A program made the position numbers and the translations under genes. A stretch of 63,613 nucleotides of DNA, the filler included, from Porpidia crustulata (lineage: Eukaryota), in the NCBI GenBank assembly GCA_964255105.1. It is 11 parts of 11 records of this genome, joined end to end, with 100 filler letters (N's around TTAATTAATTAA, not from the genome) between each part and the next. Parts side by side here need not be neighbours in the genome. Positions count along the whole stretch, not along the records: positions 46,399 to 52,070 come from CAXUWE010001733.1; 10 more parts are not named here. The stretch is one strand, 5' to 3'. Shown here in pieces: positions 17,691-50,491 of the stretch. Position 1 is the first letter of the stretch; every line of letters starts with the position of its first letter. Below the pieces are notes generated by a model. It worked only from the letters and a program-made list of their open reading frames with translations. It was not told the origin of the DNA and did no database searches.

Positions 17691-17853
17691 NNNNNNNNNN
17701 NNNNNNNNNNNNNNNNNNNNNNNNNNNNNNNNNNNNNNNNNNNNNNNNNNNNNNNNNNNNNNNNNNNNNNNNNNNNNNNNNNNNNNNNNNGAGATGAAGA
17801 GATGAAGAGATGAAGAGATGAAGAGATGAAGAGATGAAGAGATGAAGAGATGA
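17691..17853. repeat. (GAGATGAA)n microsatellite adjoining a genuine 100-N scaffold gap
   Basis: Plain N100 at 17691-17790 (no TTAA core), followed by nearly 8 copies of GAGATGAA at 17791-17853. Confidence 0.95.
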
Positions 17854-46298: not shown

Positions 46299-46398
46299 NN
46301 NNNNNNNNNNNNNNNNNNNNNNNNNNNNNNNNNNNNNNNNNNTTAATTAATTAANNNNNNNNNNNNNNNNNNNNNNNNNNNNNNNNNNNNNNNNNNNN
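46299..46398. other. Artificial contig linker
   Basis: N44-TTAATTAATTAA-N44. Confidence 0.99.
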
Positions 46399-46789: not shown

Positions 46790-47727
46790 CTACCGCCTAT
46801 CACCACTGAAGTTTCCTCCAAATCCCGGTCCTCCACCCATCCCACCAGGTGGAGGGAATGGTCCTCCCTGTTGTGGTGGGCTACCTTGCGGCGGGAATCC
46901 TCCTAGAGGCGGCATTTGGAAGTTTGGAGGCAATCCTCCGGGGGGTGGGAAAGGCATTCCAGGCATGCCAAGCGGCGGAGGGCCACCGGGGCCTCCATTC
47001 GGTGGAAAAGGTGGAAAAGGCATGCCGCGGCCTGGGAAAGGAGCTACGAAATTGCGTTAGAAGATCTCGAGTTGTGTCAAACTCAGCTTGGAGGACTCTC
47101 ACGAGGAGGGAAACCACCTGGGCCTGGTGGACCGCCCGGCATTCCAAAGGGAGGAGGTGGCATGCCGCCTATCATTCCATAAGTTAGACCTGCATCTCAC
47201 CTGAAATGATCATGATGTTGGAGATTGCAAAATAGCCACGTTGTCAACAGCTTGCAAAAGACGAGGGTAGGATTCGCCGTACCGGGGAAGCCAAACGGAG
47301 GAGGGAATCCTGGTCCACCCATAGGGCCACCGCCCTGGTTCAACATAGGATTGGCGCCAGCTTGACCTTCGGCAGCATATGAAGACGTGATAGAGTCTAT
47401 GACCGACTGCGCTTTTTCATGGCCGATTTCTACCAGGTATTTGTTAGACGACAAGCATATCGAGGGCGGACTTGCACATTTGCATATTGATCTCATGGAG
47501 GCGTACGTTGGTAGTAGTCTAGGACGTTTCTTTCATGATTTCGGCCACTATTATGGGCCTTTCGCACACTCATGGAATCGTGGGTGAGGTAGACATCGCA
47601 GTAATCGCCTGAGGTAGGTCAGTAACAGAGCTGGGGTAACATATGCGGTGCCGTCTACAAAAGAGTACACAGCTTGTCAGTATGGCAATTCTCAATATAG
47701 TGTGAATAGGAACTTATATTTTGGCAT
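46790..47727 (-). CDS. YHC1: U1 snRNP protein C (Yhc1/SNRPC); six exons including a 6-nt microexon after an AT-AC intron
   Basis: Spliced product [57 protein letters not shown] (U1-type zinc finger), followed by a Pro/Gly/Met-rich tail. Confidence 0.95.
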
Positions 47728-48017: not shown

Positions 48018-50491
48018 TCATGTACGATGCTTTGTCCACGCATTGTGCGCAGCACTTGGCATCGGCCGATAGAACGCGCCTTGCCCACTGCTTCGAGCCT
48101 GCGATCGACTCCCTCCCTCGTGTCCGGAAGGGCGTTCCTGAAATTGTCGTGGAAGGTTGGCGTTGCCTCGACCAGAAAATGGCTCAGAAGGACGAGGAGA
48201 CTGTGATCGTTGCTCACTACGCCTATATCCATATTGGCCAGGGTCATTACGGTATTCATTGTTCCTAGTGTTGGCCCAAAGTCCTCCGCCTCGAATAGTC
48301 CTGTTATTATCATTTCGATTGGGTTGATCATTACGTGTGTATGCACCGGAATCTCGATTGGCATGGTTGCTGTTTCCCCCGGTCATTATACGTATCTGAC
48401 CCTTACGAGCCGGTCCTGGAACCCTTGGATGATAGAAGTTGGCCTCCTCATCGTCGCTATCACCAATGGTGAAACGATTCTGCTTCTGTGCCCTGCCCTT
48501 TATTGTCATTTCGCCCTGTGCCTTGATCGTAAACTGCCCTGTTGGATCCGAGGACCATGTGCTTGTCCCAGACGGTTTTCCTGGTCGGCGAGTGGGACAG
48601 TCGTTGCCTAGATGCCCACTATTGCCGCACTCATGACAGCTCAGACGTACACTCTCATTGACTAAACCGGATTCCCACGACAGGCCTGTTGTCCGCCACA
48701 GAAGTTCACAGTCCGAGGTGTAGTGACCATCTCGGTGGCACAGATCGCAGGGTCTGTTGGCAGTCGTTGGTGCGTCGGTCTTATAGGGACATCTTCGTAT
48801 ATCGTGGCCAAGCTCTTGACAGTGATGACATTTCCAAACGAGTGGACACTGCTGGCTAAAATGAATGCCTTCAATTCCACAGGTACATAGGAGTTTGTTA
48901 CAGGCATCTGCCATGTGAGATTCTTCAGCACATATTAAGCATCGAACTAGCGTGTCACCCTTCACATCGCCAGGTCTCTTAGCTATGTGGAAGTATCGAA
49001 GCTGTGCCTTTAGCTCCTCTAGGCCCAGTTCCGCTAACGTACGGCGGTGATGACTCGGTATGTCGGTAGTGTATTCGCTGGGCTTCCGCCATTCGTTGAC
49101 TACATCAGATTTTGCGTAGTCCAACATGGCATTACCACCATCATCATCGTCTTCCTCATCATTATCTTTCTTGTTTTCATGGAGCTCACCGTCTGACTTA
49201 TCCAACGTAGTCTCACCCATTTCGCGGTTTTCGGGTCCCTGACTAACATCTTCTGATATTTCTCCGCTCTCGTGCTCGCTACTCTGTAGGTTCAATACAA
49301 CTCCACCATCGCTTCCAGAATCTTGATCTTGATCCAAATCAGGCTCATGGTCAGATTGCTGGCTCTGGTCTGGGCTTTTGAGAGTTGTATCATAAGCTGA
49401 ATCTCGTCCAAAGTTTGAATTCCCGGAGAACCCTTGTCCATCATGTACATCGGGTGGTTTTGGGGTGGCAACATGTACACTAGTATCACCAGAAAGGTCC
49501 TGCTGATTGGAAGTTGCTGCTGGGCTGATGGGCTCTATATCTGCATGCAGTGATGGACGCAGATCGTCTGCCGAATAGCTCTCGCCTAGTCCACCGTCCC
49601 TCAAAGCTTCTAATCGCCCTTCCTTGGTGCACTGCTGCACCAATCGCCAAAGAGCTGGCTTTGGTCGACGAAGTTTTCCCAGCTCACCACCATCATCCTC
49701 GATATCACTACCAGAAACTTCATCTTGACGGTACGAAAGAAGGCCTTCGTACTCTTTGTCAATCGGGTAGAAGAGGCAATAATTGTGGTCAATCTCTGCT
49801 TCGCGAATACGCTGGATTAATAAATGGTACTTGGGATGGTAAGTTTCCTTTGTCGAGAGCGCCTTTCTCAGGATCCCGACTCTTCGCTTCGTTTTCTTAA
49901 TCTCTTCAAAGTAGATATAGTTAGATTTCATACAAAATTAAAATACGAATATGAAAAGCCATTAAGGTATCACGAACCGCGAGCTTGGATTGCAGACTGA
50001 GCTGGAGATTGGCTTTTTCTTCGTTCCAACTTCTTTGGCTCCCCATCCTCTTGAGAATCTGCTTTTTTCGAACCCCCACCCAGCGAAATACGAATCCTGG
50101 CCTTAGTCCCGACATTCCAATTTATGGACGGCGCAGCGCGGCTCTTGTTTACGAAGTTAACCGGGCCTGAGGCTGCATTGTGGTAGGACCTTTCAGAGCT
50201 ATACAGCGCAGTGTCTGACAGTGCGCCTAATTGATCTTTGCCCAGGTCCGAGTCTTTTGGGTCTTGCATCTCAAATCCTACAGACAATTTAGGACGCTTT
50301 GTGGGGGTCGAGTTTCGGGACATGACCTGATCACTATCTTCAGATATTTCATTATATACTCTCTTATGTTCATTTGTGAGCGTTTTTAGATCATTCTTGT
50401 CTGAATCACCAATCAGACTACCAGTACTTTGCATGGTCACCTTAGCTTGTGGTGAAATCAAGAGATCGTTGTTCTTATAGATATATGGCAT
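48018..50491 (-). CDS. Air1/Air2-like (ZCCHC7) zinc-knuckle protein, putative TRAMP subunit
   Basis: Five CCHC-type knuckles (CLICAEESHMADAC, CTCGIEGIHFSQQC, CHHCQELGHDIRRC, CDLCHRDGHYTSDC, CHECGNSGHLGNDC) with a LWR linker between knuckles 4 and 5. The upstream exon (ORF 49970-50491) is joined by an intron at about 49978-49905; the start is uncertain. Confidence 0.75.

Follow-up and report, generated by a model that had tools for sequence, protein, structure and literature searches.

The stretch of Porpidia crustulata DNA analyzed here (63,613 nucleotides (nt) joined from parts of assembly GCA_964255105.1; hereafter the window) carries on its minus strand a gene for the spliceosome component U1-C, in which the codons for the first six residues are spread over exon 1, a microexon of 6 nt and exon 3, with an intron that has AT and AC ends after exon 1. 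The gene has six exons and five introns, and its complete coding sequence (CDS) of 585 nt specifies 194 residues. Exon 1, ATGCCAAAAT (47718..47727), encodes Met-Pro-Lys and the first base of Phe4. Next comes a 53-nt AT-AC intron with U2-type signals (47665..47717; ATAAGT...GTAC), in which the donor ATAAGT occupies positions 47717-47712 and the branch motif ACTGAC positions 47681-47676, with 12 nt separating the branch A from the 3' end. The microexon, TCTTTT (47659..47664), supplies the second and third bases of Phe4, the whole of Phe5 and the first base of Cys6. Intron 2 (47609..47658; GTAGAC...TCAG) is a GT-AG intron of 50 nt, with an ACTGAC branch motif at 47623-47618. Exon 3 (47507..47608), which starts GCGATTAC or, in a longer reading, GCGATTACTGC, contributes the remainder of Cys6 and the zf-U1 zinc finger (Pfam PF06220). 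All of these features lie on the minus strand, where every string and coordinate that an earlier note on this DNA had given for the introns and exons was confirmed.

Joining exon 1, the microexon and exon 3 by their coordinates yields the N-terminus MPKFFCDYC. Exon 3 alone matches the zf-U1 profile with an E-value of 5.8e-17 (61.6 bits, cut-off 22), which bears out the earlier identification of the gene as U1-C. The match covers only positions 7-38 of the 38 in the profile, so that residues 1-6, and with them the first zinc ligand, have to come from sequence upstream of exon 3. The MPKFFC N-terminus that carries this ligand is universal. A product starting MPK[FY][FY]C, in which the second Cys ligand comes three residues after the first, was obtained only when both the AT-AC intron and the microexon were used, and contiguous upstream coding for MPKF[FY] was found neither in the window nor in any of 36 AT-AC loci from metagenomes. 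The nearest upstream in-frame stop lies 48 nt before the ATG. As the earlier note had it, retention of intron 1 leads to an early stop and skipping of the microexon gives MPKCDYC, both as translated from the window. Canonical alternatives, namely the GT inside ATAAGT, the AG of GTAG, or an AT..AG intron, were rejected by reasoning from the sequence, as each of them disrupts either the frame or the microexon and none is conserved.

The rest of the gene is divided by three further GT-AG introns on the minus strand: intron 3 (77 nt, 47430..47506), whose junction YYQ|QIGHEK is found in spliced homologues, intron 4 (114 nt, 47169..47282) and intron 5 (59 nt, 47044..47102). Exon 4 (47283..47429) and the Pro/Gly-rich exon 5 (47103..47168) are placed by the coordinate splicing model, and exon 6 (46790..47043), which includes the stop codon, ends the CDS. 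The 194-residue model aligns with Lecanoromycetes U1-C proteins from residue 6-7 through the C-terminal end. Its zinc finger is identical to that of the Lecanoromycetidae sp. model P0120, and the only named models that share its NHERNVL variant are from Lecanora, Wetmoreana and Lepraria. Judged by these sequences, the gene most likely groups with those of lichen-forming Lecanoromycetes.

The first intron of U1-C in related fungi

We compared the window with related DNA from metagenome contigs, in which an alignment-based scan matched 334 stretches, of which 308 were confirmed and the best 80 taken with their flanks (L001-L080). Segments running from ATGCCNAAR to the zinc finger, from 77 loci and the window, gave 57 distinct sequences, and the parser permitted either AC or AG after any donor. 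Three loci fell outside the extraction pattern: L062, which is cut by a contig end, and L038 and L070, which we read by eye and which also show AT..AC | TCTTYT | GTAGG.

An intron after CDS base 10 is present in all 57 distinct segments. The layout of the window, with an AT..AC intron, a 6-nt exon and a GT..AG intron, accounts for 37 of them, so that what the earlier note had read from one sequence recurs in 36 other distinct segments. Two introns of which the first is GT..AG occur in 13 segments and two of which the first is GC..AG in one, while six have only the first intron (4 GT-AG, 2 GC-AG). Over the 57 segments, intron 1 is thus AT-AC in 37, GT-AG in 17 and GC-AG in three. Its terminal bases covary without exception: a first A goes with a last C in 37/37 segments and a first G with a last G in 20/20. 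Because the interiors of intron 1 vary freely from locus to locus, the AT-AC loci are not copies of one sequence. The GC-AG first introns, found in L033, L053 and L076 (donors GCAAGC or GCACGT), mean that all three donor types are seen at one intron position across fungi.

The exons around this intron vary in a different way. Among the 51 distinct two-intron segments the microexon reads TCTTCT, TCTTTT, TTTTCT or TTTTTT; bases 2 and 5 alone change, and these are the third codon positions of Phe4 and Phe5. In exon 1, relatives differ only at the third position of the Pro codon and, within the class with G-type donors, by AAA/AAG. By these patterns, exon 1 and the microexon are evidently coding. 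The position of intron 2, in phase 1 within the Cys6 codon, is common to most homologues, and open reading frames (ORFs) that read through it show '..G|DYCD'.

At locus L055, a 49-nt AT-AC intron is followed by the microexon TCTTCT and by GT-AG introns of 56 and 57 nt. Spliced in this way, the locus specifies 187 residues, 186 of which equal the corresponding positions of the annotated Aureobasidium pullulans protein P0298. Together with the coding conservation, this 186/187 match suggests that the junctions are used as drawn.

Splice signals of the AT-AC introns

The donor is ATAAGT in 33 of the 37 AT-AC segments, and ATAGGT (2), ATGAGT (1) or ATATGT (1) in the others. Branch motifs are CTGAC (22), CTAAC (13) or CTAAT (2), and the introns end in CAC (26), TAC (10) or AAC (1). 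Intron 1 ranges from 49 to 56 nt in length, and its end lies 11 or 12 nt past the branch A in all 37 segments. As U12 consensus, in part common background, we applied a donor /ATATCCTT and a branch TCCTTAAC located 10-15 nt from the 3' end. Neither the donor nor the branch motif was found in any of the 37 segments, and the U1-C introns share with U12-type AT-AC introns, with their /ATATCC donor and TCCTTRAY branch (0/37), the terminal dinucleotides alone. The U12 donor /ATATCCTT is quoted in a passage of PMC5029451, and /ATAAGT is given there as the consensus donor of type II AT-AC introns. The N-terminus thus requires an AT-AC intron with U2-type signals and a 6-nt microexon, as the earlier note had proposed, and the reading frame, the gap in the profile match and the 37/57 segments all agree with this. 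The note's further premise, that the fungal group concerned lacks a minor spliceosome, is in line with two surveys, which in the parts cited describe U12 splicing as missing in Ascomycota/Pezizomycotina (PMC2846911, PMC10639083). An Rfam scan of the 63.6-kb window found nothing, a result that is not informative on the minor-spliceosome small nuclear RNAs of the genome.

Apart from the terminal bases, the signals are tighter at the AT-AC loci than at their G-type counterparts. Donor positions +2 to +6 read TAAGT in 33/37 AT-AC versus 9/20 G-type segments, and the Lys codon is AAA, with A at -2, in 37/37 versus 16/20. Tightening of this kind is the usual compensation at non-canonical sites. It does not fit the suggestion in the earlier note that the site is deliberately weak: with these donor and Lys codon counts and a fixed branch distance, the site is near-optimal except for its termini. 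An AG is found 3-8 nt before the used AC in eight of the 37 AT-AC introns (L011, L018, L032, L077 and four more; for example TAGCAC or CAGCAC). Such an AG would compete as an acceptor if the donor were G-type; that it is tolerated would be expected if an A-type donor cannot finish on AG.

U1-C acts at 5' splice sites. The earlier note proposed that a weak AT-AC site lets the level of U1-C feed back on its own pre-mRNA, transcripts that keep the intron meeting an early stop and being decayed. A retained intron 1 would in fact be unproductive: 34 of the 37 unspliced AT-AC segments run into a stop, and in 35 of the 37 the length of intron 1 cannot be divided by three, but the same is true of most short fungal introns. 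The signals beyond the two terminal bases are nearer to consensus than those of the GT-AG counterparts, which argues for selection for efficient splicing, and Sordariomycetes and Leotiomycetes use GT-AG at this very position. A first-base A affects mainly the second catalytic step, where it is rescued by a last-base C, rather than the recognition that U1-C assists, according to the relevant section of PMC1557818. Moreover, a site whose use is assisted by U1-C would make a self-reinforcing loop and not a homeostatic one. In human cells, U1C controls the splicing of U1-70K. Spliceosome genes are known to autoregulate through their own transcripts, and the feedback loops of U11-48K and U11/U12-65K likewise pair a spliceosome component with unusual splicing of its own transcript (PMC5473595, in the part drawn on here). 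Those loops, however, depend on an enhancer or an alternative exon that is conserved and on demonstrated unproductive isoforms, and nothing comparable was found in the U1-C segments: inspection of the 57 intron-1 sequences by eye, with no formal motif search, revealed no intronic element conserved apart from the splice signals. The present analysis offers no support for a feedback switch, and we consider one very improbable.

Public gene models and taxonomic spread

A search with the exon-3 peptide returned 515 homologues, all with PF06220, and with two more searches, which used the Penicillium rubens and Orbilia brochopaga proteins, the set of fetched proteins came to 300. Only 120 of the 300 have MPK[FY][FY]C directly before DYCD. 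Another 24 start at MSVRKAHN (23 of them named as Penicillium or Aspergillus; P0122-P0214) and lack the first two zinc ligands, 12 have MPKC before DYCD, the microexon being skipped, and many are ORFs that read through introns. Four models from lichen fungi (934, 859, 1361 and 954 residues) are fused to the upstream gene, and one of these is named 'protein AIR1/2'. Among the named models from Penicillium, Aspergillus and Paecilomyces, three of 47 start with MPKFFC (P0121, P0135, P0139). The expectation of the earlier note that gene predictors would mis-annotate this N-terminus is therefore amply met by truncated, fused and microexon-less models. In P0165, P0170, P0221, P0267 and P0291 the start reads MPKYFC; this is a true Tyr4 and not read-through of an AT donor, and the only named species among them is Dipodascopsis, a Saccharomycotina yeast.

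The 12 proteins modeled as MPKC|DYCD raise the possibility that the true product skips the microexon by way of an AT..AG intron. Such skipping would leave unexplained why the microexon changes only at synonymous positions. An assembly error could also be suspected, as the stretch was found in one public run only, not recorded as RNA, in a contig with 0 differences and a word depth of 10.5, and this run is probably the source of the window itself. For an error, however, the same two coupled changes would need to have arisen again in each of 36 further distinct contigs. A pseudogene is at odds with the intact and complete ORF of 194 residues, and a U12-type intron with the absence of its motifs (0/37). 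We therefore regard it as extremely improbable that the arrangement is an artefact or that the gene gives one of these other products.

Read-through ORFs reveal the terminal bases of intron 1 in further fungi. At its start, TAY (Tyr) indicates a first base A and TGY (Cys) a first base G; at its end, the last base followed by TC gives Leu for C and Val for G, or, in the other frame, xAC gives His, Tyr or Asn and xAG gives Gln. Among 33 ORFs that run from MPK into intron 1, 15 are G..AG, 13 are A..AC, five tell nothing of the 3' end and none combines the two types, so that the 28 informative at both ends divide into 13 AT..AC and 15 GT..AG.

Named models were called A-type or C-type from their reading into A-type donors or C-type ends. 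A-type introns were found in this way in Dothideomycetes (Aureobasidium sp., MPKYK...YSSVG; Rhizodiscina lignyota, ...HSFVG; Saccharata proteae), Lecanoromycetes (Lambiella insularis, ...HSSVG), Eurotiomycetes (Penicillium rubens, P. capsulatum, Penicillium sp. IBT 18751x, Aspergillus terreus) and Orbiliomycetes (Orbilia brochopaga, Arthrobotrys musiformis). The Orbilia brochopaga model contains an in-frame AT..AC intron of 51 nt (MPKYKY...LLFC|DYCD) and has no second intron. G-type introns were found in the Sordariomycetes Chaetomium tenue and Gaeumannomyces tritici, and the GT-AG loci L023, L044 and L078 have an exon 4 nearly identical to that of Glarea, Hyaloscypha and Rhynchosporium proteins (Leotiomycetes). 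The class was looked up for six species, and the remaining named species presumably belong to the classes given here.

By near-identity, L055 and L080 were placed with Aureobasidium, L023, L044 and L078 with Leotiomycetes, and L035 and L060 as Penicillium-like. In the NCBI taxonomy, the named G-type cases all fall in 'sordariomyceta', and the A-type cases in three other 'leotiomyceta' classes and in Orbiliomycetes, which lie outside that group. With AT-AC in Orbiliomycetes, Dothideomycetes, Lecanoromycetes and Eurotiomycetes and GT-AG in Sordariomycetes and Leotiomycetes, the AT-AC arrangement is, on this distribution, evidently old. An ancestral AT-AC state with one reversion would be the simplest reading.

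Directly upstream of U1-C in the window lies an open frame of 639 codons (48018-49937, minus strand) with CCHC-like zinc knuckles, which has a sub-threshold match to Pfam Efg1 (23.3 bits, cut-off 25). The window also contains paired runs of 44 N about every 5.8 kb over 5712-57942, plus one run at 17691-17790, which look like masking and not like assembly gaps. The runs nearest to U1-C (46299-46342 and 46355-46398) lie downstream of its stop codon and leave the finding untouched.

Persistence and significance of the AT-AC arrangement

The second intron differs between the two classes as well. It starts with GTAG in all 37 AT-AC segments (GTAGGT 17, GTAGGC 11, GTAGGA 5, GTAGAT 3, GTAGAC 1) and in only one of the 14 G-type loci with two introns (L051). 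In 29 of the 37 AT-AC segments, this GTAG provides the first AG past the branch point of intron 1. GTAG after the pyrimidine-rich microexon may act as a surrogate AG, or it may be a lineage marker. It is not obligatory, because intron 2 starts with GTAY in the AT-type ORFs P0006 and P0023 and because Orbilia has the AT-AC intron without a second one. In the long intron 2 (the class of 125-159 nt) of the Penicillium-like loci L035, L061 and L069, a partly conserved block GTCAYATC..GC..TTCCGG was seen, which probably reflects relatedness.

These features could be read as a device that protects the microexon. If an A-type donor finishes only with a C-type acceptor, exon 1 could not be joined to the AG of intron 2, which would guard the 6-nt exon from being skipped, and GTAG might serve as surrogate pyrimidine tract and AG. 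All 37 AT-AC DNA segments have two introns and all six one-intron loci are G-type, GTAG is kept in 37/37 versus 1/14 while positions +5 and +6 vary, and an AG 3-8 nt before the AC is tolerated in 8/37, as this idea would predict. However, Orbilia brochopaga has an AT..AC intron but no second intron, so that a microexon is not needed, P0006 and P0023 show GTAY, G-type lineages with two introns retain the microexon without any such device, and the association may reflect common ancestry only. We think it distinctly unlikely that protection of the microexon is an added role of the arrangement.

We consider it highly probable that intron 1 of U1-C is a genuine U2-type AT-AC intron removed by the major spliceosome, that the 6-nt coding microexon next to it is genuine as well, and that the two, with the ordinary GT-AG intron 2, give MPKFFC, an old arrangement probably kept without a regulatory role. 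In the mechanism that we propose, U1 and U6 would recognize the donor by its TAAGT at +2 to +6 together with the A at -2, and the branch step would use the consensus CTRAC. At the second catalytic step, where the first base of an intron usually contacts the last as G with G, an A-C pair would take over; the AC located 11-12 nt past the branch A would be used because A and C are compatible at this step. A single-base step back, to AT-AG or to GT-AC, would cripple an essential gene. The arrangement thus probably persists because either single reversion would be harmful, and not because of regulation.

Several observations weigh against this view. ORFs of the complementary DNA (cDNA) type, with MPKFFC and with intron 3 spliced out, were compared with all loci, and they matched no AT-AC locus, their close matches being GT-AG loci only. 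P0298, to which the spliced product of L055 corresponds, may have been modeled with the help of homology itself. As the covarying loci are related, they may reflect as few as one independent switch from AT-AC to GT-AG. Most of the metagenome loci have no taxonomic placement, as tblastn with named proteins is too noisy because of their proline-rich tails. Finally, that U11, U12, U4atac and U6atac are absent from Porpidia crustulata would follow from the literature alone.

An alternative account of the same distribution assigns a function to the intron. AT-AC would be ancestral to Pezizomycotina, possibly a fossil U12-type intron that moved to the major spliceosome when the minor spliceosome was lost, and it would have been retained either to lock in the 6-nt exon by an orthogonal donor-acceptor pair, with GTAG as surrogate AG, or to tie U1-C output to proofreading at the second step. 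Retention would then span hundreds of millions of years, and Sordariomycetes and Leotiomycetes would constitute a natural reversion experiment. This account is speculative, and we consider it unlikely.

As a U2-type AT-AC intron removed by the major spliceosome, the reading that we favor, intron 1 of fungal U1-C would join a known class as a deeply conserved case. The sections of PMC1557818 cited here count 24 type II AT-AC introns in five species (15 human, 6 mouse, 3 fly, 0 worm, 0 Arabidopsis), none of them fungal, and type II introns in xylanase genes of filamentous fungi are merely hypothesized there. In gene models of three fungi guided by RNA sequencing, among them A. niger, AT-AC junctions make up 0.03 % (PMC4084796, in the part drawn on). 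Full-text searching, which did not cover supplements such as lists of non-canonical introns, found no account of an AT-AC intron or a microexon in fungal U1-C; in fungal papers, the string 'AT-AC' mostly denotes domains of polyketide synthases.

The animal introns of SCN4A, SCN5A and TAF2 likewise combine AT and AC ends with a U2-type intron, an /ATAAGT donor and conservation among orthologues (PMC1557818, same sections). In contrast to these, the U1-C intron is fungal, has a length of 49-56 nt with a fixed distance of 11-12 nt from branch to end, belongs to a spliceosome gene and adjoins a 6-nt exon; its removal by the major spliceosome is what its signals suggest. A first-base change from G to A is rescued by a last-base change from G to C in yeast and human (PMC1557818), and the same compensating terminal pair, first A and last C, is present in engineered introns of yeast and human pre-mRNA (Parker and Siliciano 1993 and others, cited in passages of PMC1557818 and PMC5029451). 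The natural covariation in U1-C is the evolutionary counterpart of this terminal-base suppression experiment. The engineered introns are laboratory mutants of reduced efficiency according to those passages, whereas in U1-C the pair is the natural state across several fungal classes and in an essential gene. Saccharomyces cerevisiae, likewise an ascomycete without minor spliceosome, has an AT-AC intron nested in the RPL30 intron (PMC5029451, passage on RPL30). That event concerns about 1-2 % of the messenger RNAs, is non-productive and uses a donor unlike /ATAAGT (same passage); removal of the U1-C intron, by contrast, is required for the protein, and its donor is the consensus.

A rare class of intron thus appears to sit in an essential spliceosome gene, where it is needed for the first zinc ligand and is conserved in at least four classes of filamentous ascomycetes. 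With a sister group that has GT-AG at the same position, U1-C would demonstrate in nature, and in replicate, how the first and last bases of an intron are coupled. Public U1-C models in the AT-AC lineages are mostly truncated, fused or microexon-less, and proteome comparisons based on them would wrongly show U1-C without its zinc finger. The lineages with the AT-AC intron include the tractable fungi Aspergillus, Penicillium and Aureobasidium.

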